A stretch of 64,000 bases of DNA from a phage. Positions within the stretch are counted from its first letter, which is position 1. The number at the start of each line of letters is the position of its first letter. The position numbers and the translations under genes were made by a program. Location of the stretch: the sequence record PZ151149.1; one strand, 5' to 3'. The notes below the pieces were generated by a model. That model ran no database searches. It was not told the DNA's origin and was given only the letters and a program-made list of their open reading frames with translations. Positions 1,325 through 64,000 of the stretch are shown one piece after another.

Positions 1325-2815
1325 ATGGCAGATTTGAAACATGGATCTACTGTAGGCGGATCTCCCATTTGGACGCAAGGAAACTTGACGATCCAGCCAG
1401 CGGGGGATCAGCTTTTCTACAAAGGTCATAAAATCTATACCGCTTTTGATAAACCTTCGGCTGCCGATTTTGATGCTGTTAGTGCTAAAGACGGTGGCAC
1501 ATTTCAAAAGCAGGTCCATTTTGAGGAAGGTTTAAGCGTCGGTAGTGCATCGGCTGGAGAAACCAAAAAGAACGGGATCTTTAAAGGAAATAGTGATGCG
1601 GCTAACTTTGATGGTGTAAGTTGGGGTTTGCATTCGTGGAAATCTATTGGTTTTGTTAATGCTCGTGATGATGTTATCATGGCTTATATTGACACTACCA
1701 CAGGTGATTTTAAAACTAAAGGGACTATCGAAGGGACAGCCATTAAAGACACAGGTCAACGCGTCTATAGCCCTGTTAATAAACCAACGAATAATGATTT
1801 AGATTTGGTGTCTCGTCGCGGTGATACCCTCACAGGAACATATAATTTAAACACTGTCACTGTTAAACTATCGGTTGATTCGAAATTAATTGCAAGGGAA
1901 CGTGATTTAATTAATTTTGATGCGACTAAGATCTATTATGGTAACGTTCTTGATACGTTGGTCTTCCGAAGTAAAGATGAGCCTACCATTTTTGTTAATG
2001 GTAAAGAAGGTCGTTTTTATCACACCAACAATAAACCAACTAAAGCCGATGTGGGACTAGGCAATGTCACCAATGATGCACAGGTTAAACGTGCTGGTGA
2101 TATTATGGAAGGTAACTTGCAAGCGCCTAGAATGTTGGCGACAAACGATCCGGCTGGACCTAATGAATTGGTTCGTTTGAGCTACTTTGAGAAAAAATCA
2201 ATGGTAGCAAATCCAACCATCATTGGAAACGTTGATTGGAACACTCTTATTAATCGCGGTATCTATCGTGTGGAAAATGCTGGGTCAGGTACTAATAAGC
2301 CGTCTGATAGCTATTATAACGGCGTTTTGATGGTATATCGCCCAGAAGATGCGGTCGGTACTCGTCGAATTGTTCAGGTGTATTATCCTGAATCTATTGA
2401 TCATCCGATGTGCTGGCGTTCGTGTTCTAATGAATCATGGACTGCATGGAACTATGTAGATCACCGTAAATTGGCTGATATTCGCTATGTTAACGTAACT
2501 GGCGATACCATGACAGGACCGTTAACTGTTCCGGCTGCAAACGGTGTTAGAACAGCTAGAGGTGCATATAATGGTGATAACTACTATGCTGGGTTAAATA
2601 GTGCCGATGGTACGGCTATGATTCACCGTATAAGCGATATTAAAGCCACCGAAAAATTGGGTATTACCCATGATTCTAAGGCTGTTTTCATCAAATCGCG
2701 TGGAAATACTCAGGACACCGACCGTTATGAACTTTATCACGAAGGGCATAAACCTACCCCTGCCGAAGTTGGCGCGGTTCCACTTAATGCGGTGATTGAT
2801 TTTGGTACTTTCTAA
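1325..2815 (+). CDS. tail fibre protein (gp36-like position)
   Basis: 496 aa; GDTMTGPL and HEGHKPTPAEVGA fibre-type motifs also found in the adjacent 1018-aa fibre; late promoter and SD upstream. Confidence 0.75.
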   Translation: MADLKHGSTVGGSPIWTQGNLTIQPAGDQLFYKGHKIYTAFDKPSAADFDAVSAKDGGTFQKQVHFEEGLSVGSASAGETKKNGIFKGNSDAANFDGVSWGLHSWKSIGFVNARDDVIMAYIDTTTGDFKTKGTIEGTAIKDTGQRVYSPVNKPTNNDLDLVSRRGDTLTGTYNLNTVTVKLSVDSKLIARERDLINFDATKIYYGNVLDTLVFRSKDEPTIFVNGKEGRFYHTNNKPTKADVGLGNVTNDAQVKRAGDIMEGNLQAPRMLATNDPAGPNELVRLSYFEKKSMVANPTIIGNVDWNTLINRGIYRVENAGSGTNKPSDSYYNGVLMVYRPEDAVGTRRIVQVYYPESIDHPMCWRSCSNESWTAWNYVDHRKLADIRYVNVTGDTMTGPLTVPAANGVRTARGAYNGDNYYAGLNSADGTAMIHRISDIKATEKLGITHDSKAVFIKSRGNTQDTDRYELYHEGHKPTPAEVGAVPLNAVIDFGTF

Positions 2816-2885: not shown

Positions 2886-5800
2886 ATGGCAGATTTAAGC
2901 AGAATCCAATTTAAACGCACTAGCACTAAAGGTCGTAAACCTGATGCTAGTACGATGTATCCGGGGGAATTAGCAATCAACCTTGCGGATCAATACATGT
3001 TTACTAAAAATGATTCGGGGACTCTCATCAATTTAAGTTGTCCTCCGGTGTATAACCGTGACGTTGTAATGGCGGGTAAGGTTAAAGGAAATGATTATAT
3101 TTTAAGCAAAACCGCTAATTATTTTGAAGACCAAACCGCGCGAGATCTTAATTATTTTGGTGCGTTTCGACCGAATAATGCTGATGGTTGGTCTAACTTG
3201 ATTCTGAACATTCCTCACCCCAGCGGTAAAGCACACGGTCGCGGGTTTGAATTTCAATATGGTTCTAGTTCCTCTCAGGTTAAAACCTATGGCTTTGATA
3301 AAGATGGTGCTAAGCGATTCAGCTTTCGCATGTATCATGAAGGTGATAAACCTACCCCATCGGAATTGAACGTTTACAGCAAACAAGAAGTTGATCGCAT
3401 GTTTGTTAAAAACGTTAAAATGTCAACTCCTAGCAGTGCAACAGGGTATTTCAAAATTGCTACCGCTATGATCCCACAGCAAGGAAAAATGGTATTTATT
3501 CGTATCTATGGTGGTAATGGATACAACGTTAACTCTCCGACTCAAGTTGATTTTGTAGAAATCGTGATTCTTGGTGGGAATGGAAATCCTAAAGGTGTTA
3601 CTGTTGCTGCATATCGAAGAAATTCTTTAAATCAACTTGAAGTGTTTGCTATTAATACATCCGGTGACAACTATGATATCTACGTAAAATATGGTCGGTA
3701 TACCGATAATGTTATTGTAGAATTTGGTAAAACGGTTGGTGTTAATTTAACTGTTCATGATGTTCCAGATTTTTCGGAAGCAAAACCTGCTGGTACTACC
3801 TTTGAAGGTCGTATTATTACCATGTTTAATACTGAAAATAAACGAGGTTCTTTGTATTTCGATCAAAACACGCAAGAGACTTATGATATTATCAGTTTGT
3901 GTGACTATTCAGGTACTGGCAAAAAATATATTCGTAAATTCCGCAGTGGACCAAGCTACGCAATCTGGCATGAAACTGTTCAAGACGACACATATCGTCT
4001 ATCAACTGGTACTACCGATTCTAACGAAGTTCTACGAATCACAGGTCGTACCATGTATACCGGAAAACTGGTAGTGGATGCAGGAAGTAATGCTATTCGT
4101 ATGCTGCGACCTACCGGACAAAGTAACTATCTGGAATATGTGGATAATCGCAACGGTGCTAGCAAGCGTCAAGGATGGATCGGTTTTGGTAGTATTGAAA
4201 ATGATAACTTCCAATGGTATAGCGACGTAGGTAAAAACTCATTACAGTTAGATACTACTGGTCAAATATCATTAACCACAGGTGCAACAAAAATTGTATA
4301 CGCTAATGGTCAATATGTATCGGCTAACTCTGATGCGTATCGTATGATCTACGGTAATTATGGTGCATTCTGGCGTAATGATGGTGCTAGCGTTTATCTT
4401 CTGTCTACTGCTGAAAATGACAAATTTGGTGCTTGGAATACCTACCGACCGTTTATCTATAATTTAGTATCTGGAGACGTTAAATTAGGTGGTACTAACA
4501 CCGCATGTTGTTTGTATCTGGGAATTGATGGTAGTACCCGTATCGAGGATAAATTAGTTTTCAGGGCGGGATCTCGTCAATCAATGGACTACTTAGAATT
4601 TGTTCATTGGGGGGCAAGCAATACAGGTCGAAATAACGTTTTAAGTCTTCGTGACTCAAAAGGATTTTTAGCAGAATTTGAGCGTAAAGGTGATAACACC
4701 ATTCAAAATACATTCTTCGGAAGATTTAAAGTCAATGGTGATTCTAACGCTATTACCATTAATGCTCCTACTGATTCTGATGCTGTTTATGTGAAAGGTA
4801 CTTGTAATGATGTAGATAACTGGTATATCGGTAAAGGTGGTGCTGGTAATGGATTAGTTTTTTGTAGTTATAAGACTAATGCGGCTGTTCATCTCACAGA
4901 TAATGGTGAGGTTTTATTAGCCCCACAAAACACCGCAATTGTTAACATCAATCGCGACCGTATACACATCAACGGTACACAGTGGGTGGCAAATCAGCCA
5001 CATGGCTGGGGTAATCAGTGGCTGTCCGAAGCTCCTATATTCGTTGATTTTGGTACTGGTGTTCCATATGATACCTATATGCCAATCATTAAAGCCCGTA
5101 GCCAAACTGCTGGCGGTTATGCAACTAAGGCCGATTTTGGTATATATCGTCGTGGTGCTGGTGATAATTGGGGTTGGGGTGATGCTGTTATTCGTGTCGG
5201 TTCTGCCGAAAGTGCCGATTCTTCACATCCAAATGCTAGATTCATGTTCCAAGCAAATGGAGATTTTAGAGCACCTGCTGGCCTCCGTGCTGGTGTTAAC
5301 TTGGGTGTTGGTACTGATCCTGCATTGGGTGGACATTCTATTGCTATCGGTGATAATGACACTGGCTTAATGTGGGGTGGTGATGGTCGTATTAACCTGC
5401 TTGCTAACGGACAGCATATTGCGTCATGGGGTGTTTTCCATCAAGAACATCCTGGGCTATGGTCTGTCGGTGCTGGGTTCTGGACAGAAGTCGATAAAGC
5501 GATTATTTCTCACGGTCACTTGATTCAGGCGAATGACAGCTATTCTACATATGTTCGTGACATTTATATCCGTTCGGATATTCGCGTGAAGAAAGACCTA
5601 GTTAAATTTGAAAATGCATCTAAGACACTTTCAAAAATTAACGGTTACAAATATCTTCAAAAGCGCGGGACCAATGAAGACGGTAGCGAACGTTGGGAAG
5701 AAAACGCTGGTTTGATTGCTCAGGAAGTTCAAGCTATTTTGCCGGAATTGGTTGAAGGCGATCCAGATAGCGAAAACCTTCTTCGTTTGAACTATAACGG

Positions 5801-5942
5801 TGTTGTTGGTTTAAATACTGCTGCGATCAACGAACACACCGAAGAAATTGCACTTCTTAAAGAAGAAAATAACCGTCTGAAAGAAGAAAATAAAATTCTT
5901 CATGATCGTCTTGCTGCAATTGAAGCAAAATTATTTGGTTAA
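2886..5942 (+). CDS. 37: long tail fibre distal subunit (gp37-like) with C-terminal intramolecular chaperone domain
   Basis: 1018 aa, beta-rich Gly/Asn/Thr fibre composition; shares YHEGDKPTP motif with the upstream gene; last ~122 aa match the S74-type chaperone pattern. Confidence 0.85.
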   Translation: MADLSRIQFKRTSTKGRKPDASTMYPGELAINLADQYMFTKNDSGTLINLSCPPVYNRDVVMAGKVKGNDYILSKTANYFEDQTARDLNYFGAFRPNNADGWSNLILNIPHPSGKAHGRGFEFQYGSSSSQVKTYGFDKDGAKRFSFRMYHEGDKPTPSELNVYSKQEVDRMFVKNVKMSTPSSATGYFKIATAMIPQQGKMVFIRIYGGNGYNVNSPTQVDFVEIVILGGNGNPKGVTVAAYRRNSLNQLEVFAINTSGDNYDIYVKYGRYTDNVIVEFGKTVGVNLTVHDVPDFSEAKPAGTTFEGRIITMFNTENKRGSLYFDQNTQETYDIISLCDYSGTGKKYIRKFRSGPSYAIWHETVQDDTYRLSTGTTDSNEVLRITGRTMYTGKLVVDAGSNAIRMLRPTGQSNYLEYVDNRNGASKRQGWIGFGSIENDNFQWYSDVGKNSLQLDTTGQISLTTGATKIVYANGQYVSANSDAYRMIYGNYGAFWRNDGASVYLLSTAENDKFGAWNTYRPFIYNLVSGDVKLGGTNTACCLYLGIDGSTRIEDKLVFRAGSRQSMDYLEFVHWGASNTGRNNVLSLRDSKGFLAEFERKGDNTIQNTFFGRFKVNGDSNAITINAPTDSDAVYVKGTCNDVDNWYIGKGGAGNGLVFCSYKTNAAVHLTDNGEVLLAPQNTAIVNINRDRIHINGTQWVANQPHGWGNQWLSEAPIFVDFGTGVPYDTYMPIIKARSQTAGGYATKADFGIYRRGAGDNWGWGDAVIRVGSAESADSSHPNARFMFQANGDFRAPAGLRAGVNLGVGTDPALGGHSIAIGDNDTGLMWGGDGRINLLANGQHIASWGVFHQEHPGLWSVGAGFWTEVDKAIISHGHLIQANDSYSTYVRDIYIRSDIRVKKDLVKFENASKTLSKINGYKYLQKRGTNEDGSERWEENAGLIAQEVQAILPELVEGDPDSENLLRLNYNGVVGLNTAAINEHTEEIALLKEENNRLKEENKILHDRLAAIEAKLFG
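5574..5939 (+). other. intramolecular chaperone (S74-like autoproteolytic) domain of the fibre
   Basis: SDIRVKKD...GLIAQEVQAILPELV...heptad C-terminus, the pattern of T5 pb1 / K1F endosialidase chaperone domains; predicted cleavage before Ser at 5574. Confidence 0.65.
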
Positions 5943-5950
5943 TTTAAATG

Positions 5951-5968
5951 GCGGGGAGAAATCCCCGC
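5951..5968 (+). promoter_or_regulatory. GC-rich hairpin between fibre gene and first Gly-rich gene
   Basis: GCGGGGA-gaa-ATCCCCGC stem-loop with no T-run; nearly identical to the stem of the cassette at 43652..43667 on the other strand. Confidence 0.35.
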
Positions 5969-5980
5969 TAAGGATCTTAA

Positions 5981-6277
5981 ATGGGCTATTGGGTAAGTAA
6001 TGAACAAGGCACTAAAATAGATGCTGTAAAATGGCATGTTTTTGATATTCCTAATGGATATGTCCCCGGTCGTGCTGGTGTTGCCGTTTTGCGGCATACT
6101 GCTAATGATGTTTGGGGTGATATTCATATTTCCGTTGACGGTGTGGTCGCCGCGCGTCGTCGTGGTGGTGGGGATTGGGGATTTACGGTTAATGCGTTTG
6201 TTCCTGCTGGATGTACTGTCACCTTTGGTCATGGTGGTGGCGGTGGTATTGAATACTTTAAATTTATGGAGTTTTAA
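5981..6277 (+). CDS. glycine-rich small protein, paralog 1 of 3
   Basis: 98 aa; AAGGA SD; MGYWV start, FDIPNGY and GGGGG motifs shared with the next two ORFs. Confidence 0.6.
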   Translation: MGYWVSNEQGTKIDAVKWHVFDIPNGYVPGRAGVAVLRHTANDVWGDIHISVDGVVAARRRGGGDWGFTVNAFVPAGCTVTFGHGGGGGIEYFKFMEF

Positions 6278-6279
6278 TT

Positions 6280-6585
6280 ATGGCTGGATGGGTTGCGGGA
6301 AGAATGGCTAATGCTATTAGCATTTATGCTAATGGTGGGTGGTTTGGTATCCCTAATGGTTGGGTGGCTGATTCATGCGGTATTGTGTCTGTTCATGCCG
6401 AAGCAGTTGGCGGTGGAGGTGACTTGGACGCCGAATTATATGTAAACGGTACTCTCGAATCAGGTCATCACGCTGGTAATGCCGGAAGTTGGGGAGCTAG
6501 TTCTTTAGTTGGTGTTGGCGCTACTGTCAGTTTTAGCATTGGTAAAGGAAGTTTACATCACTTCCAATTTAGGAGAATGCATTAA
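6280..6585 (+). CDS. glycine-rich small protein, paralog 2 of 3
   Basis: 101 aa; GGAG SD; WFGIPNGW and GGGGD motifs; starts 3 nt after paralog 1 stop. Confidence 0.6.
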   Translation: MAGWVAGRMANAISIYANGGWFGIPNGWVADSCGIVSVHAEAVGGGGDLDAELYVNGTLESGHHAGNAGSWGASSLVGVGATVSFSIGKGSLHHFQFRRMH

Positions 6586-6887
6586 TGGGATATTGGGTGT
6601 ATGGCGTTTTAGACAATAAAGCCGGTAAAGCGAATCAGGGATGGTTTGATATTCCTAACGGGTGGACGCCTGACGCTTTCGGTACGGTTTCATTTGGTGC
6701 TAGTTCTGCTGGTGGTGGCGGTGGTGACTCAGAATTGCTTTTGCATGGCTTTTGTGTGTCTGGAAGTCATAAGGGTCATGATTGGGGACAGATCCATTCT
6801 TGTATTGTGCCGCAGGGAGTAACGATCACGGTAACTACAAACAGGGGTATTTCCCATCTTCGTTATAGACGCTTGAGCAACCGTTAA
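6585..6887 (+). CDS. glycine-rich small protein, paralog 3 of 3
   Basis: 100 aa; AGGAGA SD; WFDIPNGW and GGGGGD motifs; start overlaps paralog 2 stop (TAATG). Confidence 0.6.
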   Translation: MGYWVYGVLDNKAGKANQGWFDIPNGWTPDAFGTVSFGASSAGGGGGDSELLLHGFCVSGSHKGHDWGQIHSCIVPQGVTITVTTNRGISHLRYRRLSNR

Positions 6888-6940
6888 AAAAAGAATTAAG
6901 GAAAACTCCCAGGGAAGGGAACTACTAAGGAGAAACGGCT

Positions 6941-44739: not shown

Positions 44740-44767
44740 ACAGAAAAATAAAAAGGGAAACCCTTTT
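44740..44767 (-). terminator. rho-independent terminator
   Basis: Minus strand AAAGGG-ttt-CCCTTT followed by TTATTTTT. Confidence 0.5.
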
Positions 44768-44789
44768 CAGAGTCTCCCTTATAAAGCCA

Positions 44790-45077
44790 TTACAGCATAC
44801 TTAATACCGTTTGCCGTGTACTAATCCACATAGCAGAAAGCAGTTCTGGCGTGTGTGGCTGTTTGTAGATATCACGTAATTTTCCGATAGCGTAGATATA
44901 CGCATCACGATTATCATCGATGATAGCTTGTTCAGCCCACCGCTTAAGGCGTGCAATCTCTCGCGAGTTCTTACGCAAGATCTTTTCCGCTTTCTTAGCG
45001 GCTTTAGCCTCTAGTTCTGCTTGAACTTTGTCTACTTCATTCACTGCAATCTGGTCATGCTGTTCATTGCAAGTCAT
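44790..45077 (-). CDS. hypothetical protein
   Basis: 95 aa, coiled-coil-like, basic. Confidence 0.5.
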   Translation of the reverse strand: MTCNEQHDQIAVNEVDKVQAELEAKAAKKAEKILRKNSREIARLKRWAEQAIIDDNRDAYIYAIGKLRDIYKQPHTPELLSAMWISTRQTVLSML

Positions 45078-45078
45078 A

Positions 45079-45312
45079 TTATTTTACCTCTGGGATATAA
45101 TCAATTATTAAAGAAAATTCATCTTCTGATACATTATAGCTATGTGAGATTGTACCCGTAAAGACCTCAAGATCCGGTGATTTGATATTGCAAGGATCGA
45201 TAATCACCGGAACGCCGCAATCTCTCAAAAATAATTTGGCGAAATACGGCACGAGGTCAGTTTCAAACTCTGCTTCTTCCAGCAAACGGGAAATGTTAAT
45301 TTTCAATCTCAT
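45079..45312 (-). CDS. hypothetical protein
   Basis: 77 aa ORF. Confidence 0.45.
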
Positions 45313-45829
45313 AAAATTGGTCCAGGCTAGGCAATTCCTCGGTCAATACATCTTCAACCTTTGGCGCTTTCGGTTTATTGACCGATTCCTCGTAGTTGTT
45401 GATTTTATCGTAAATGTCCTGTATGAATGCCTCATCCGCAATCTGGCACATATCAGCGTCGCGTTCGTCATATACATGATGCACAAAATATTTGTATTTT
45501 GCGGCTGTCGCTGTTCTCTCTTTTTTAATGCGCTGTACAAAAGCATTAAAGCACGCTTGCGTGATGTAAGCATGAGGATTTTTATACTTTGTCTCGTCAA
45601 AATTAATCAAACCCTTGACCGCCGCTTCGATTCCGTCGTCGATCATTTCTTCGCGCCATGTTTGACTATAACCAGAAAAGTTAAAACGACGTGATAGATT
45701 TTTAGAGATTTGCATAATTGCTAGGCCGATTTGATCGCTCATTGGAACTTGCCGACCTTCTGCTGCAATTTGTTGTTTCCAACGGCAAATTTCTTCGTAA
45801 AGCTCTTTATTGTTTACATAATCAGACAC
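45296..45829 (-). CDS. 55: late-transcription sigma factor
   Basis: 177 aa, GTG start with GAGGG SD; long blocks [51 protein letters not shown] and FIQDIYDK...YEES match T4 gp55. Confidence 0.9.
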
Positions 45830-45869
45830 TTCGCACCCTCGCTATTATTTAGGAAATAACCCTTTCGGG

Positions 45870-47339
45870 CTATTCCCCATTACCATTATACTTTCTTTGC
45901 TTAGTTATCCACACTCTAACCATCTCTACTGATTCACCGTCAGACGGATCAAGAGTTTTTCCTTTTTTCTTCATGCGATACTTAAATCCGTTAAATCTTG
46001 CATTCTCTTGCTCGTTAAAGTCGAACATCTTTTTAAATGATTTTCGCCCTTTACGCTCACCACATTCTAGCGGAATCATTCGGTCTGTTATTACATTGGC
46101 ATTAGGTAGAAACGTTTTTAGATAATCCACCAAAGCCCAATCAGGAACATATAGATTAACATTCTCCTTGCTATCGTTGTCTCTCAGGTTACAACGCAAA
46201 CATAATTGAAATGCTGGTTCCAGATAATCAGACACATGACGCGCTTTCAAAAACTCGTTTGTCGGGAGATCACAACTATTAGCAAGACCTTTTAAAATAT
46301 CAATCTCCCATCGTTGAGGGTTAAAGCTGAACATCACAGCAACATTTTTATGATGAATGTAAGAGTTAAGACCATAAGATCCGTAAGGTATCCGCTCACC
46401 AATACCATTTGTGCACGCTTCACGGTCCCGATTCACTGTATAAATGAAGTTATCACCACATTCATTTTTAACCATATCAACAAGACGTTCAAAGGTATTG
46501 TTTGTTTCTGACTGGTGACGCGACCATCGTTCGGAGTCCGTCATAAGGATGATGTTAACTCTATCTGTATTTTTATACTCTTTGAAATATAGTCTGGATT
46601 CTAGCGCACTCGGAACAAAATCGCAATTTGCATAGTATCGTAGATACTTCCCACTATATGTATCAAAGAGATTTGCACATGCTATCGTAACCTTTTTAAA
46701 GTCTCCCCATGTACCGTGTTTGTTATCGTTCAAGAAAACAATTTTCGACCCATTCTTCCGGTGTCCTTCGTTATGTTTTACCATAACGTTGATTTTCTTC
46801 TCTAATAACGCCTCATAAAGCCCTCTAAGAGAAGAATCGATCATATCAGTACCATCCTTTGCACTTTCTATCTTTTCTTTGATAGCGGCCTTCTCGGAGT
46901 CTTTTAGAACTAAGTTCTGTAGACATTCCGATTCGTCGGCGATTGGTTCGCAATGCTTCGTGATAAGTTCAAGATTAGACTTAAACGGATACTCATTAAA
47001 TTCAACCAGTTGAGGAACTTCATCAATGTAAAGCGCATAATCACCAAACATTTTTGAACGTTCCATATTAGATAACGCTGTATGTGTAATGAATATCACA
47101 TCAGCACCATCTTTAACTGATTGCATTATCGACGCTTGCACTGTCTTAAGGCTTCTTAGTCTTGTGCTATCAATCAAGACAGCACGACCGCCCATTCTTT
47201 TAAACTTATTGTAAGATTGTTCACTTAAAACACGAGATGGCGAAGCAATAACCGCTTTTTCTTTTGTCTCTAGGACGTGGGAAAGTATAGCATCAGTTTT
47301 CCCCGCCGCTGGCAATGCGATTAATGTTTCAATCTTCAT
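45870..47339 (-). CDS. P-loop ATPase, function unknown
   Basis: 489 aa; Walker A LPAAGKT near the N-terminus and Walker B-like LYIDEV about 90 aa later; no T4 counterpart recognised. Confidence 0.55.
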   Translation of the reverse strand: MKIETLIALPAAGKTDAILSHVLETKEKAVIASPSRVLSEQSYNKFKRMGGRAVLIDSTRLRSLKTVQASIMQSVKDGADVIFITHTALSNMERSKMFGDYALYIDEVPQLVEFNEYPFKSNLELITKHCEPIADESECLQNLVLKDSEKAAIKEKIESAKDGTDMIDSSLRGLYEALLEKKINVMVKHNEGHRKNGSKIVFLNDNKHGTWGDFKKVTIACANLFDTYSGKYLRYYANCDFVPSALESRLYFKEYKNTDRVNIILMTDSERWSRHQSETNNTFERLVDMVKNECGDNFIYTVNRDREACTNGIGERIPYGSYGLNSYIHHKNVAVMFSFNPQRWEIDILKGLANSCDLPTNEFLKARHVSDYLEPAFQLCLRCNLRDNDSKENVNLYVPDWALVDYLKTFLPNANVITDRMIPLECGERKGRKSFKKMFDFNEQENARFNGFKYRMKKKGKTLDPSDGESVEMVRVWITKQRKYNGNGE

Positions 47340-47644
47340 TAGAAACCCTTACGTCGTGCTTTCTGGCATTTCTTGATCATTTTATCAGAAATTTCGCGCT
47401 TAGGTGCAATCTCTTTCACACCGAAAGCACTAATGCCAAATTCAGAGAGAATATATTCAACCAACAATTCACGCACACGCGTTTTACCGATATTCACGCC
47501 GTTATTTTTCAGATATGTCTGGCCTTCGACTTGCATCAGATCTAAATCTGCGTCGGTAATATTGATTTCTTCCATGCGCCCAAATCGAGAATAAACCATG
47601 TGTGCGATTGCATTGTGTACTAACATAATATATTCCTCACTCAA
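47339..47644 (-). CDS. hypothetical protein
   Basis: 101 aa ORF. Confidence 0.5.
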   Translation of the reverse strand: MSEEYIMLVHNAIAHMVYSRFGRMEEINITDADLDLMQVEGQTYLKNNGVNIGKTRVRELLVEYILSEFGISAFGVKEIAPKREISDKMIKKCQKARRKGF

Positions 47645-62119: not shown

Positions 62120-62361
62120 TTTGTGATCTCCTTATACTCAACACACCATAAGCGGGTAGCCCATGATAAACGCTCGTAACGCTGGCAGAAATCGGACCAT
62201 AGATATTGTGTGCCGTCCTGCATAGTTGAAATATGCGTTTTCTCTCCCACTTTCACGAAAGAAGTATTAGATTTTGTGATCTCGACCGGAGTATATCCGA
62301 AAGCTGGCGGTATTACTGATTCGTTGGTCTTCATTCTATATTCCTCACTCTTCTGTTTCAT
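62116..62361 (-). CDS. hypothetical protein
   Basis: 81 aa ORF. Confidence 0.5.
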   Translation of the reverse strand: MKQKSEEYRMKTNESVIPPAFGYTPVEITKSNTSFVKVGEKTHISTMQDGTQYLWSDFCQRYERLSWATRLWCVEYKEITK

Positions 62362-62581
62362 TTCTTTTATATGGTACTATAACAGGATTAATACAGCAAG
62401 CACCAATTACGTTATGAGCACCACAATTTAAACATTTATAATCATGGAACTTATTAAGGAATCGACCAAACTCATAACCGACTAACGCCGCATGTACTTG
62501 AGTCTCGATCTCATCCATATCAGCTAATGTTTTAACCTTCATAATATAATCCTCAAATGGTAGTTTTGCGAAGATGGTCAT
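62345..62581 (-). CDS. hypothetical Cys-rich small protein
   Basis: 78 aa; CLNCG...ACC segment. Confidence 0.45.
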   Translation of the reverse strand: MTIFAKLPFEDYIMKVKTLADMDEIETQVHAALVGYEFGRFLNKFHDYKCLNCGAHNVIGACCINPVIVPYKRNETEE

Positions 62582-62843
62582 TACATGCTTTTAATGCATC
62601 AGTCGAGGTGTCATAGCGAGTATTATCATAGCACCAGTAACCATCTGTCAACTGATAAATTAATCCATCCTTTTTAGCTTCGATGAAAGACAATTCTTTG
62701 AAAGTTTCTACTTTCTTTGCTGATACTCCACGATCGCGGCGTTTATACAGTTTAGCTAAAATGCGTTCGGCTTGTTCCTCTTTATCGCCAGACAGATCCC
62801 AGATAATACTGCGGATATGTTTGATTAATTGTTCAGTGGTCAT
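62553..62843 (-). CDS. hypothetical protein
   Basis: Start taken at ATG 62843 (AGGAGAATCAACA SD); the track start 62897 lies inside the promoter cassette. Confidence 0.5.
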   Translation of the reverse strand: MTTEQLIKHIRSIIWDLSGDKEEQAERILAKLYKRRDRGVSAKKVETFKELSFIEAKKDGLIYQLTDGYWCYDNTRYDTSTDALKACNDHLRKTTI

Positions 62844-62881
62844 TGTTGATTCTCCTAGAAAGTGTCGTGCTTCGATGTGTG

Positions 62882-62912
62882 TATTGTGCAATAACACCGG
62901 ATCGCTGTCAAC
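62882..62912 (-). promoter_or_regulatory. early promoter (PeSL-like, weak stem)
   Basis: TTGACA, 17 nt, CACAAT, followed by the conserved SD. Confidence 0.45.
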
Positions 62913-62929
62913 ACTTTCTAAGAAAAATT

Positions 62930-63214
62930 TTAAATTAATCGAATATAGCCCAGAATTTCAGCACTTTTAGCCAGGTCTAAAACTTCCCATTCAAGGTCGC
63001 CGTAGTCATAATTTGCAACCATCAACTGATCATTTTTCATGCAGCAATCATGAGAGAAAATTTGCCCCGCATAAACTACGATAGTGATAAACTTTCCTGA
63101 TTCTGGCGGTGTGGAAGACAAAGCGACCATATGACCATTCAGCTTAGTCACCAGTGATGGAACAATAAAATTCGGGCTTACCTGAATGCTGTTAAATCCG
63201 TTTGTGTCTTTCAT
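62930..63214 (-). CDS. hypothetical protein
   Basis: 94 aa ORF. Confidence 0.5.
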   Translation of the reverse strand: MKDTNGFNSIQVSPNFIVPSLVTKLNGHMVALSSTPPESGKFITIVVYAGQIFSHDCCMKNDQLMVANYDYGDLEWEVLDLAKSAEILGYIRLI

Positions 63215-63561
63215 GCCAGACCTCGCAAAACACTAATAGCATAATCATGCTGGTTATTCATAATATCAATTGCGTTGTGATAGCGAGCTAAACCATCAAG
63301 GATAAATTCTTGTTTATCCTGTTTCAGTTTGGTATCACGCGCAGCCATAAGAGCATCAAGAACAGGTCCAAAGTGATTATCTAATTCATCTTCGGTTGCA
63401 ATGTTTCCTATTGCCTCGTCGATCCGTGATTCTAATGCTTGCTTTTCGTTGATCACTTGCTGGGTATATTCCAACACATCAAGAATATCGCGGGTAACGT
63501 CGCCATGATAAGGTATTCCCGCGTGAATATGATCAATTAATCGCTGAATATCAATGTTCAA
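63211..63561 (-). CDS. hypothetical protein
   Basis: 116 aa; TTG start with GAGGG SD. Confidence 0.45.
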   Translation of the reverse strand: MNIDIQRLIDHIHAGIPYHGDVTRDILDVLEYTQQVINEKQALESRIDEAIGNIATEDELDNHFGPVLDALMAARDTKLKQDKQEFILDGLARYHNAIDIMNNQHDYAISVLRGLA

Positions 63562-63880
63562 TTGTAACCCTCCTCTGAAAGTACATCCCAGATCGTTGCG
63601 TCAAGGTGCATTAAATTCCACATAATAGAGTCATAACTACCGAAGCCAGAAGTAAAAATTACATCACACTGACGATAGGTCTTATGAAAATCGGTAGCTG
63701 TCTCTGCATCAATCGGCATATCGTCACCTGAAAGCACCAGACAGAATCATAACCCTGTTAGCCGTTGGCGCTTGCTTAGTCTTTTCAGCATATTTTTCGA
63801 TGATCCGTTTTGCCTTTTCTTCTTTGATACGTCCAGACCAAATCCGGTTTCGGTATTGATTCATAATAATTTCAATCACA

Positions 63881-64000
63881 TCATTTTGCATTCTTCACGG
63901 TCTCCATAATTGTTTTGTAAGCCAGTTTAAGATGATCACCGAAAAACTTTGCGGTGTTACCCTTCGGATCGCGGAGCATGGTTTCTACGATCTCATCGGC
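63881..64000 (-). CDS. 3' end of a gene that starts beyond the window
   Basis: Minus-strand frame open from nt 64000 down to TGA at 63881; C-terminus ...KTIMETVKNAK. Confidence 0.4.
   Translation of the reverse strand, partial: ADEIVETMLRDPKGNTAKFFGDHLKLAYKTIMETVKNAK

Follow-up and report, generated by a model that had tools for sequence, protein, structure and literature searches.

In the phage analyzed here, a Krischvirus (an RB49-like coliphage of the T4 superfamily), the unusual part of the distal tail fiber locus is the gene-38 position, which holds three uncharacterized small proteins, and not the chaperone domain that ends the preceding fiber protein, gp37. By analogy with related fibers, the three products, denoted A, B and C, probably cap the cleaved gp37 tip instead of gp38 and have a receptor-binding function. 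A first-pass annotation of the window, i.e., the whole stretch of 64,000 nucleotides that was analyzed, had proposed that the genes in this position differ in role from their T4 counterpart, and this proved useful: the position contains three small paralogs instead of a chaperone of the T4 type or an adhesin of the T2 type.

Three small genes downstream of gene 37

The region that follows gene 37 contains these features:

5951..5968, + strand: GC-rich hairpin GCGGGGA-GAAA-TCCCCGC between gene 37 and A, with no T-run on the + strand (sequence)
5981..6277, + strand: small protein A, 98 aa, the first of three paralogs (ORF, paralog comparison)
6280..6585, + strand: small protein B, 101 aa, with its ATG 2 nt past the stop codon of A (ORF, paralog comparison)
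6585..6887, + strand: small protein C, 100 aa, with a start that overlaps the stop codon of B, TAATG (ORF, model)

The three paralogs, each of about 100 aa, are translationally coupled and together span 5981-6887. No late promoter TATAAATA was found between gene 37 and the small genes, and we therefore infer read-through transcription from upstream; scans for sigma-70 promoters and terminators returned nothing beyond the hairpin at 5951-5968. Farther downstream in the window, a dc5-like 79-aa ORF and holin t are present, as in RB49.

At E <= 0.01, none of the three proteins had a match in Pfam, be it to Tfa, T4 gp38 or any other family. Protein A, the sole paralog compared to the PDB by sequence, had no match there, and its only match in PHROGs was phrog_18834 (unknown function, E 0.002). 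Word-indexed and exhaustive profile searches detected remote homologs in 7-13 clusters per query, with 17 representatives, none of which carries a functional name; 15 of the 17 have lengths of about 100-130 aa, the two exceptions being long proteins with short partial matches. In the literature, we found no description of these genes, of their UPWr_E1 and G2248 versions, or of C1q-like gp37 caps. A, B and C are an uncharacterized protein family. In the loci compared, there are always exactly three copies, the order is the same, and the start/stop spacing is conserved. Identity is 44-100% within each class and 18-43% between classes, orthology is kept between myovirus and siphovirus loci, and the most variable stretch of each ortholog group is a glycine-rich loop at approximately residues 38-48.

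Absence of gp38

The two known gp38 positions are represented by wV7, in which gp38 is encoded directly downstream of gp37, and by RB49, in which nothing lies between g37 and dc5 and g38 is 57 kb away, at 45367-46143. The second position is identified in the window by a junction:

62821..62856, no strand assigned: junction without RB49's displaced gene 38 and ORF080c (RB49-window DNA alignment)

RB49 44752-45278 aligns with positions 62330-62856 of the window and RB49 46397-47584 with positions 62821-64000, the displaced g38 locus of RB49 being deleted in the window. Searches by tblastn with RB49 and wV7 gp38 as queries found no gp38 within the 64-kb window, so that gp38 is absent from it; this absence holds for the window, and the approximately 100 kb of the phage beyond it could in principle encode one. 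In the complete genome of G2248, no gp38 was found anywhere with RB49, wV7 and kvi gp38 as queries, and positive controls worked. KFS-EC keeps g38 and carries only a decayed A-C fusion. Taken as a group, this phage, G2248, UPWr_E1 and G37-3 make up a subset of Krischvirus without gp38 at either known gp38 position.

Two candidates for a disguised gp38 were rejected. ORF143w of RB49, considered as the displaced gp38, is a methyltransferase-like protein. The possibility that A, B and C are a split or diverged gp38 was discarded as well: they occupy three different frames and are mutual paralogs at 30-41% identity, and comparison to gp38 yielded nothing by blastp and a probability of 0.6% by hhalign.

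The C-terminal domain of gp37

The fiber gene and the domain that ends its product are as follows:

2886..5942, + strand: gene 37, long tail fiber distal subunit precursor, 1018 aa (ORF; Pfam Gp34_trimer, Peptidase_S74)
5574..5942, + strand: intramolecular chaperone domain, aa 897-1018, 122 aa, plus the stop codon (Pfam, 6F45, PHROG and profile matches)
5856..5939, + strand: C-terminal helix at about aa 991-1018, which presumably forms the coiled-coil core of the chaperone trimer (sequence, AF2 model of the last ~30 residues)

The N-terminal 1.6 kb of gene 37 has 84% DNA identity with gp37 of Krischvirus Delraymugoa, and Gp34_trimer matches aa 431-525 in Pfam; trimerization domains thus lie upstream of the Peptidase_S74 domain, which occupies the extreme C-terminus (the last 122 of the 1018 residues, Ser897 to Gly1018). 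The translation of 5574-5942 reads SDIRVKKD...GLIAQEVQAILPELV...LKEENNRLKEENKILHDRLAAIEAKLFG followed by the stop codon, codon 897 beginning at nt 5574, and the minus strand of 5574-5938 contains no competing ORF of at least 50 aa. The first-pass annotation had taken these ~122 residues for an S74-type chaperone, and the homology searches bear this out. Pfam gave a significant match of Peptidase_S74 (PF13884, profile positions 1-57 of 58) to aa 897-956, with E 1.2e-11 and a score of 45.2 bits, above the gathering score of 22, and phmmer against the PDB matched gp37 to 6F45_A, the long tail fiber distal subunit of phage S16 (E 1.3e-35). The 122 residues match 39 PHROG tail-fiber families, and for 24 of the 25 families listed no more than about 15 positions separate the match from the C-terminus of the profile. 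A profile built from seven such S74 domains and run against the PDB recovered 6F45 (6.8e-28), the MYRF auto-cleaving domain 7DC3 (5e-9), the tail fiber 8JOV (5e-7) and the GA-1 neck appendage chaperone 3GUD (0.0036), in which the first residue of the chain is a Ser aligned with Ser897. K1F endosialidase and T5 pb1 were not among the PDB sequence matches, the similarity being too low for direct detection, and the tie to these proteins runs via PF13884 and 3GUD. The single-sequence AF2 model of the domain is poor (pLDDT 56.5), with the last ~30 residues helical at pLDDT 72-92; the identity of the fold therefore rests on sequence homology. The C-terminal helix is heptad-rich, and the alignment shows that one heptad, LKEENNR, is extra compared to G2248 and UPWr_E1; it is also present in the prophage fiber of E. 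coli UTME-12.

An S74 chaperone domain on gp37 is not new and is ordinary in the RB49-like group. RB49 gp37 also has the Peptidase_S74 match, and a self-cleaving gp37 chaperone, after whose action the gp38 adhesin is attached, has been described for RB49 as well as the great majority of T-even-like phages (PMC9569957). The chaperone domain alone changes nothing; it places the fiber in the common S16/T2/RB49 type.

Predicted cleavage and maturation

Alignment with characterized fibers predicts two further features:

5571..5591, + strand: predicted autocleavage site R896-S897 with the Ser897-x4-Lys902 pair, R-SDIRVK (alignment)
2886..5573, + strand: predicted mature gp37, aa 1-896, ending ...SYSTYVRDIYIR (alignment with the S16 and fPS cleavage sites)

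In the window, RDIYIR precedes SDIRVKK, with the predicted break ahead of Ser897. The published sites (cut at the slash) are DLNVS/SDRRIKK in S16 and DVYIR/SDGRLKI in the fPS-phages (PMC7917993); the window motif agrees with both, in line with the cut before Ser897 that had been predicted earlier. In T5 pb1, the catalytic pair is Ser1264/Lys1269 (PMC4690869). The S-x4-K pair and the motif D[IV]Y[IV]R/SD are invariant in an alignment of ten fibers. We conclude that the domain is a genuine S74 chaperone that very probably cuts gp37 at Arg896-Ser897, cleavage itself being predicted from homology with S16 gp37, T5 pb1, K1F endosialidase and the GA-1 appendage. The last three proteins share with gp37 the Peptidase_S74 domain, the Ser-x4-Lys pair, the location at the extreme C-terminus, behind a trimeric beta-helical fiber, and the terminal helix for a coiled coil; the K1F and T5 proteins differ in being tailspikes or side fibers, with no cap protein joined after cleavage. 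That the domain is a non-cleaving relic retained on the fiber is hardly credible, given that neither the S, D, R and K columns nor the cleavage motif vary among fibers with domains only 30-76% identical to that of the window, and that the domain is 93% conserved in DNA between the prophage and the lytic phage.

Based on these homologs, we propose the following maturation steps: (i) three chaperone domains would trimerize about their C-terminal helices; (ii) the chaperone trimer would template the folding of the interdigitated beta-helical tip directly upstream; (iii) after correct folding of the tip, Ser897, activated by Lys902, would cut the Arg896-Ser897 bond; and (iv) the chaperone trimer would depart, leaving a mature fiber of 896 aa with a flat triangular tip (...RDIYIR). 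Arg896, as the likely C-terminal residue of the mature protein, is relevant to the expression and engineering of this fiber.

The suggestion that the fiber may fold on its own stands insofar as it has its own chaperone domain, and T4-type gp38 chaperoning is, as had been claimed, not expected. The suggestion is overstated because RB49 and G2248 retain gene 57A, the G2248 copy being 98.8% identical to that of RB49. It should be noted that G2248 is the closest trio-carrying relative with the whole genome scanned, that the window does not span the 57A locus, and that the argument draws on gene retention in these two phages; by analogy, this fiber may still need gp57A.

Exchange with prophages

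The small genes share a segment with the distal half of the fiber:

4377..6901, + strand: 2.5-kb cassette comprising the distal ~520 aa of gp37 and A, B and C (blastn against a prophage)

This cassette has 93.2% DNA identity by blastn with a prophage in the E. coli UTME-12 chromosome. We inspected 14 other loci (Krischvirus and siphovirus-like prophages), and in all 14 A, B and C directly follow a fiber that ends in S74; the prophages bearing the trio have E. coli and Salmonella as hosts, and the module is found as prophage genes in 24 of 5,426 complete E. coli genomes. The plasmid collection PLSDB yielded no copy of protein C, and the module is therefore not a phage-plasmid module there. These comparisons indicate that A, B and C travelled with the distal half of the fiber as one cassette and point to a clear recent exchange of fiber modules between temperate and virulent phages. 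The possession of a distal fiber segment and adjacent accessory gene in common by virulent T4-like and temperate phages is known from T4 gp37/gp38 and lambda stf/tfa (PMC3157838). That exchange differs from the one described here in the tip, in folding by gp38/Tfa instead of an intramolecular chaperone, and in the accessory genes.

RB49 resembles this phage in the genus backbone, the S74 domain on gp37 and the downstream genes; however, the distal half of gp37 in the window is of the T2/wV7 type, with 33% identity to RB49 compared to 67% to wV7. The identity with wV7 gp37 is 66.6% across 389 aa reaching the C-terminus, and the last 25 residues before the predicted cut are identical at 22 of 25 positions to those of wV7 gp37, a gp38-using fiber.

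Possible roles of A, B and C

The C-terminal chaperone of S16 gp37 (6F45), like that of the T2/T6-type fibers, is auto-cleaved, and the chaperone of the window has the same motif (S/SDRRIKK in S16 vs R/SDIRVKK). In the S16/T2 type, the cleaved trimeric tip is the docking platform for a separately encoded gp38 adhesin, with its gene just past g37; S16 gp38 is a single chain, and three Trp residues of its N-terminal attachment domain enter the tip pockets. The gp37 tip of the window is homologous to this gp38-docking tip (wV7, 6F45), whereas the adhesin with glycine-rich motifs is missing from the window and three ~100-aa paralogs are present instead. Protein C, the sole paralog modelled, is predicted to consist of an N-terminal helix bearing the invariant Trp4 followed by a TNF/C1q-like jelly-roll beta-sandwich. 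The closest known systems include the C1q globular head (A/B/C chains), TNF/C1q-like trimers and C1q-like phage fiber heads.

By analogy with gp38, the A, B and C products would dock on the exposed gp37 tip and serve receptor binding in its stead. Because the three-gene set is fixed, the cap is possibly a heterotrimer. Our tentative proposal, which is nearly as likely as not, is a heterotrimeric C1q-like head with A, B and C at 1:1:1 that caps the gp37 tip after chaperone release as the receptor-binding adhesin, is plugged in by Trp4 and belongs to a mobile module. Under such an arrangement, the N-terminal helix of each chain would insert Trp4 into one of three symmetry-equivalent tip pockets, a three-chain cap would take the place of the mismatch in symmetry between trimer and monomer at the gp37-gp38 tip, and the distal fiber, the chaperone and the three caps would constitute a mobile cassette that virulent T4-like phages and temperate siphoviruses exchange.

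The three proteins might instead be alternative homotrimeric caps, a virion then carrying fibers of up to three specificities (bet-hedging). Homotrimers are common among the TNF/C1q-like domains that the C model matches in fold, and peak variability in the loop at ~38-48 of each ortholog group is what independent receptor-binding surfaces predict. Nevertheless, independent alternatives are expected to vary in number, whereas here the number is fixed at three and the A-B-C order is fixed too, orthology is kept across myovirus and siphovirus loci, and intergenic start/stop spacing is conserved; we consider this explanation unlikely. A different possibility is that A, B and C act in assembly, as chaperones or tip-maturation proteins, and are absent from the virion, the mature gp37 tip itself binding the receptor. 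Genes adjoining fiber genes downstream often encode chaperones, as is the case for the Tfa proteins of lambda and Mu and for T4 gp38 just downstream of its fiber gene. The T4 protein is the published case (PMC3157838). In the present fiber, a chaperone is already attached, A, B and C are without the Tfa or gp38 matches noted above, and the modelled fold appears nearer to receptor-binding heads than to known fiber chaperones. Furthermore, the three genes and gp38 exclude each other in G2248 and KFS-EC, and the near-identity of the gp37 tip to that of a gp38-dependent fiber argues against the bare tip as the receptor-binding site. A role purely in assembly is thus improbable.

Implications for host range

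Prediction and engineering of host range in T-even-like phages presently presume T4-type gp37 tips or gp38 adhesins, and receptor prediction for Krischvirus relies on gp38 phylogeny (PMC12032242). The trio-bearing subset of Krischvirus has no gp38 at either known position, and in G2248 none genome-wide; gp38-based methods would therefore mis-predict these phages, one of which, UPWr_E1, is already a component of phage cocktails for poultry. If A, B and C are indeed the adhesin, they would represent a receptor-binding module that is new, compact, apparently portable and suited to the docking platform of gp38.

The chaperone domain of gp37

The gene of the distal long tail fibre subunit precursor, gp37, and three small paralogous genes, A, B and C, which occupy the gene-38 position on its 3' side, lie in the window as follows:

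2886..5942, + strand: gp37 ORF, 1018 aa; codon 897 starts at nt 5574
5981-6277, + strand: gene A, 98 aa
6280-6585, + strand: gene B, 101 aa
6585-6887, + strand: gene C, 100 aa

The translation of nt 5574-5942 is SDIRVKKDLVKFENASKTLSKINGYKYLQKRGTNEDGSERWEENAGLIAQEVQAILPELVEGDPDSENLLRLNYNGVVGLNTAAINEHTEEIALLKEENNRLKEENKILHDRLAAIEAKLFG, followed by the stop codon. The first-pass annotation had placed an auto-cleaving intramolecular chaperone of the S74 type here; the location and all motifs it quoted are present in this translation, and its classification was upheld by Pfam, where Peptidase_S74 (PF13884, 'Chaperone of endosialidase') matches gp37 aa 897-956 with 45.2 bits (gathering score 22, E 1.2e-11), and by PDB 6F45 chain A, the distal long tail fibre subunit of Salmonella phage S16, which matches the last 180 residues with E 1.3e-35. 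Upstream, Pfam places Gp34_trimer at aa 431-525 and, below its threshold, gp37_trimer at aa 621-674. The 122-residue domain matched 39 PHROG families of tail-fibre, tail-spike and baseplate proteins, and in 24 of the 25 families listed the match lies at most about 15 positions from the C-terminal end of the profile. In the PDB, a profile built from seven aligned S74-type domains (A3) found 6F45 (6.8e-28), the human MYRF auto-cleaving domain 7DC3 (5e-9), tail fibre 8JOV (5e-7) and the GA-1 neck-appendage chaperone 3GUD (0.0036), the first residue of the deposited 3GUD chain being a serine aligned to Ser897. The S74 domain at the gp37 C-terminus is confirmed by these sequence matches as real, not chance similarity.

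The predicted cleavage motif is RDIYIR|SDIRVKK, and D[IV]Y[IV]R|SD.R[VL]K is common to all 10 fibres aligned. In S16 the site is DLNVS|SDRRIKK, with removal of the last 113 residues, and the fPS phages have DVYIR|SDGRLKI (PMC7917993); C-terminal cleavage was also described for T2/T6 gp37 by Trojet et al. (PMC3157838). In T5 pb1, cleavage needs a correctly folded trimer, and Lys1269, five residues beyond the scissile Ser1264, activates that serine (PMC4690869). The corresponding pair in gp37, Ser897/Lys902, is invariant in A3, and it is very improbable that the domain is a non-cleaving relic.

The single-sequence AlphaFold model of gp37 aa 881-1018 was poor (pLDDT 56.5) and confident only in the last ~30 residues, a helix consistent with the coiled-coil core reported for T5 pb1 (PMC4690869); the fold itself rests on sequence. 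Compared with the Krischvirus relatives G2248 and UPWr_E1, this terminal helix (window ~5856-5939, aa ~991-1018) carries an extra heptad, LKEENNR, beside LKEENKI, an insertion that the prophage fibre of E. coli UTME-12 shares. The insertion resembles a tandem duplication of 21 nt and would lengthen the chaperone coiled coil.

The domain is already known for this phage group and is standard for gp37 of the RB49, T2 and S16 types: RB49 gp37 has the same Pfam S74 match at aa 871-930, and a self-cleaving gp37 chaperone, with later attachment of a gp38 adhesin, has been stated for RB49 and most T-even-like phages (PMC9569957). The local gene order (gp36-like fibre, gp37, dc5-like 79-aa ORF, holin t) is that of RB49, and the N-terminal 1.6 kb of the gp37 gene are 78-84% identical to those of RB49-like Krischvirus phages. 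The gp36-like protein (window 1325-2815, + strand) has 496 aa, more than twice the published gp36 length of ~220 aa (Trojet et al., PMC3157838), and only aa 57-164 fall in its Phage_T4_gp36 domain; the ORF at the same place in RB49 and its relatives is equally long.

The annotation had further proposed that the fibre may fold on its own. This holds in so far as a T4-type gp38 chaperone is not needed; independence from gp57A is not likely, because RB49 and G2248, the latter with the same three small genes, keep gene 57A, with 98.8% identity between their copies. The 64-kb window gave no tblastn match to gene 57A, whose locus falls outside it.

Three small genes in the gene-38 position

Genes A-B-C stand in tandem between g37 and the dc5-like gene, the place of gp38 in T2-type phages, and are absent from RB49 and Delraymugoa. 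The proteins are 30-41% identical to each other. The B start follows the A stop by 2 nt, the B stop is overlapped by the C start (TAATG), and Shine-Dalgarno sequences for B and C lie inside the preceding genes. Between g37 and A-B-C we found no late promoter, only a hairpin without a T-run. We infer from this layout that A-B-C share the transcript of g37 and that their translation is coupled. Both g36 and g37 are followed by a GC-rich hairpin, at 2822-2839 and 5951-5968, and the two are nearly identical (stems GCGGGG/CCCCGC); the former has a T-run and is terminator-like, and the latter, with no T-run on the + strand, scores as a terminator on the - strand. An antisense ORF of 97 aa that overlaps gene A (5939-6232, - strand) is without support and probably spurious.

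No Pfam family was found for A, B or C, no PDB relative by sequence for A (the only one queried), and no published description in a literature search; the sole PHROG match was a weak one, of A to a family of unknown function. A fragmented gp38 was rejected as their origin, as they have no similarity to gp38 by blastp, and the profile-profile probability is 0.6%. The F-x-I-P-N-G motif and Trp4 are invariant in 23 of 23 aligned sequences. In two Salmonella-type loci, L010 (7609-8001) and L011 (7645-8001), the called B has 20-30 additional N-terminal residues ahead of the conserved G-x-W-V motif; either its translation really starts further in or B is different at this end, which bears on the equivalence of all three Trp-bearing N-termini.

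The RB49 g38 gene lies at a displaced locus (45367-46143), as described by Trojet et al. (PMC3157838). RB49 44752-45278 aligns with window 62330-62856, and RB49 46397-47584 with window 62821-64000; since both flanks align and the span between them does not, g38 and ORF080c (RB49 45279-46396) are precisely absent at 62821-62856. Neither RB49 nor wV7 gp38 gave a tblastn match in the 64-kb window. The flank alignments overlap by ~35 bp, which suggests that the loss came from recombination at short repeats. Across window 62300-63400, junction included, phage phiS (PP449093) shows 100% identity, yet it lacks the three small genes.

Gene arrangements in Krischvirus phages
RB49 type: g37 / dc5 / t; g38 at the distant locus
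kvi type: g37 / g38 / dc5 / t; distant locus empty
Window type (G2248, UPWr_E1, G37-3): g37 / A / B / C / dc5 / t; distant locus empty
KFS-EC: distant g38 kept; only a decayed A-C fusion ORF next to g37

In the KFS-EC fusion ORF (L014:3476-3799, 107 aa), the N-terminal ~88 residues of A run on into an internal segment of C, and B is deleted. The ORF is a decayed remnant of the three genes; gp38 of this phage is at the RB49-type locus (L021:1642-2418). The complete 170,678-bp G2248 genome gave no match with three divergent gp38 queries, the positive controls scoring 1e-24 to 1e-169. Wherever checkable, intact A-B-C and gp38 are mutually exclusive.

Family spread and the prophage cassette

The family is very small: clusters among 5.8 billion proteins numbered 7 for A, 9 for B and 13 for C, and an exhaustive profile search of 1.84 billion proteins gave 17 representatives, 15 of them of about 100-130 aa. 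Enterobacteriaceae prophages hold most copies. The family occurs in 5 of 50,697 phage records (four phages) and in 24 of 5,426 complete E. coli genomes, where every copy lies on the chromosome and bears the annotation 'hypothetical'; a plasmid collection yielded none. At every inspected prophage-type locus (L009-L013, L022-L027; E. coli and Salmonella contigs), A-B-C lie directly 3' of a 1031-1235-aa fibre ending in Peptidase_S74, within a siphovirus-like structural module (S78-capsid fusion, fibre, A-B-C, tail tube, J-like tip protein).

The position of this prophage fibre (~1030-1235 aa), between the head genes and the tail-tube gene, is unusual, and the 50,697-record collection held no isolated phage with such a fibre module. 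Two prophage fibres were compared with Krischvirus gp37: that of L011 is 40% identical over aa 233-676 (gp37 aa 7-453), and that of L009 39%. Gp34_trimer is present in all five fibres of L022-L026.

Window 4377-6901 codes for about 520 distal residues of gp37, for the chaperone domain and for A-C. Its DNA shares 93.2% identity with the UTME-12 chromosomal prophage (NZ_CP157095, 1981211-1983731), extra heptad included, and the closest sequenced Krischvirus reaches 85%. This puts the stretch nearer to the prophage than to any sequenced Krischvirus. Tip, chaperone and A-B-C thus travel as one cassette between temperate and virulent phages; the identity suggests that a temperate siphovirus and a virulent T4-like phage have recently exchanged this fibre-tip module.

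Discussion

In S16, gp38, the adhesin of the cleaved tip, is attached by three N-terminal helices, each with an apical Trp that enters one of the equivalent pockets of trimeric gp37 every 120 degrees (PMC6851490). The AlphaFold model of protein C from a 23-sequence alignment (pLDDT 80) has a low-confidence N-terminal helix (residues 2-12) and a six-stranded beta sandwich (pLDDT about 90) with a TNF/C1q-like fold. The pre-cleavage tip of gp37 is identical at 22 of 25 positions to the tip of wV7, in which gp38 comes right after gp37; A-B-C also accompany the NDVYIR|SD.RLKIN tip type (G37-3, Salmonella loci), which is found in gp38-bearing RB49 and kvi as well. Since each occurs with both tip types, A-B-C and gp38 appear to be interchangeable partners of one gp37 platform.

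By homology, the chaperone domains would trimerise and template the gp37 tip, Ser897/Lys902 would cut after Arg896, and the chaperone would depart. A, B and C would then probably cap the exposed tip and bind the receptor. The competing reading, that the three are non-virion assembly factors, we consider improbable. As to how such a cap is built, A, B and C could each form an alternative homotrimeric cap, or all three together a single cap. Across nine loci, within-class identity (A-A, B-B, C-C; 44-100%) is always higher than between-class identity (18-43%), and the A-B-C order and the 1-nt B/C overlap are invariant, with an A-B gap of 1-2 nt; this conservation argues for an obligate complex of three components rather than for three independent alternatives. 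Homotrimeric caps are thus rather unlikely, and for the obligate complex we tentatively propose a 1:1:1 heterotrimer, in which three Trp4-bearing helices may mimic the gp38 attachment bundle and the variable glycine-rich loop at ~residues 38-48 would likely contact the receptor.

The interest of this region lies in the last point of the first-pass annotation, the gene-38 position, the chaperone domain being real and correctly placed and classified, but standard. There, an uncharacterised A-B-C set appears to have replaced gp38 and to have been exchanged with E. coli prophages along with the fibre tip.
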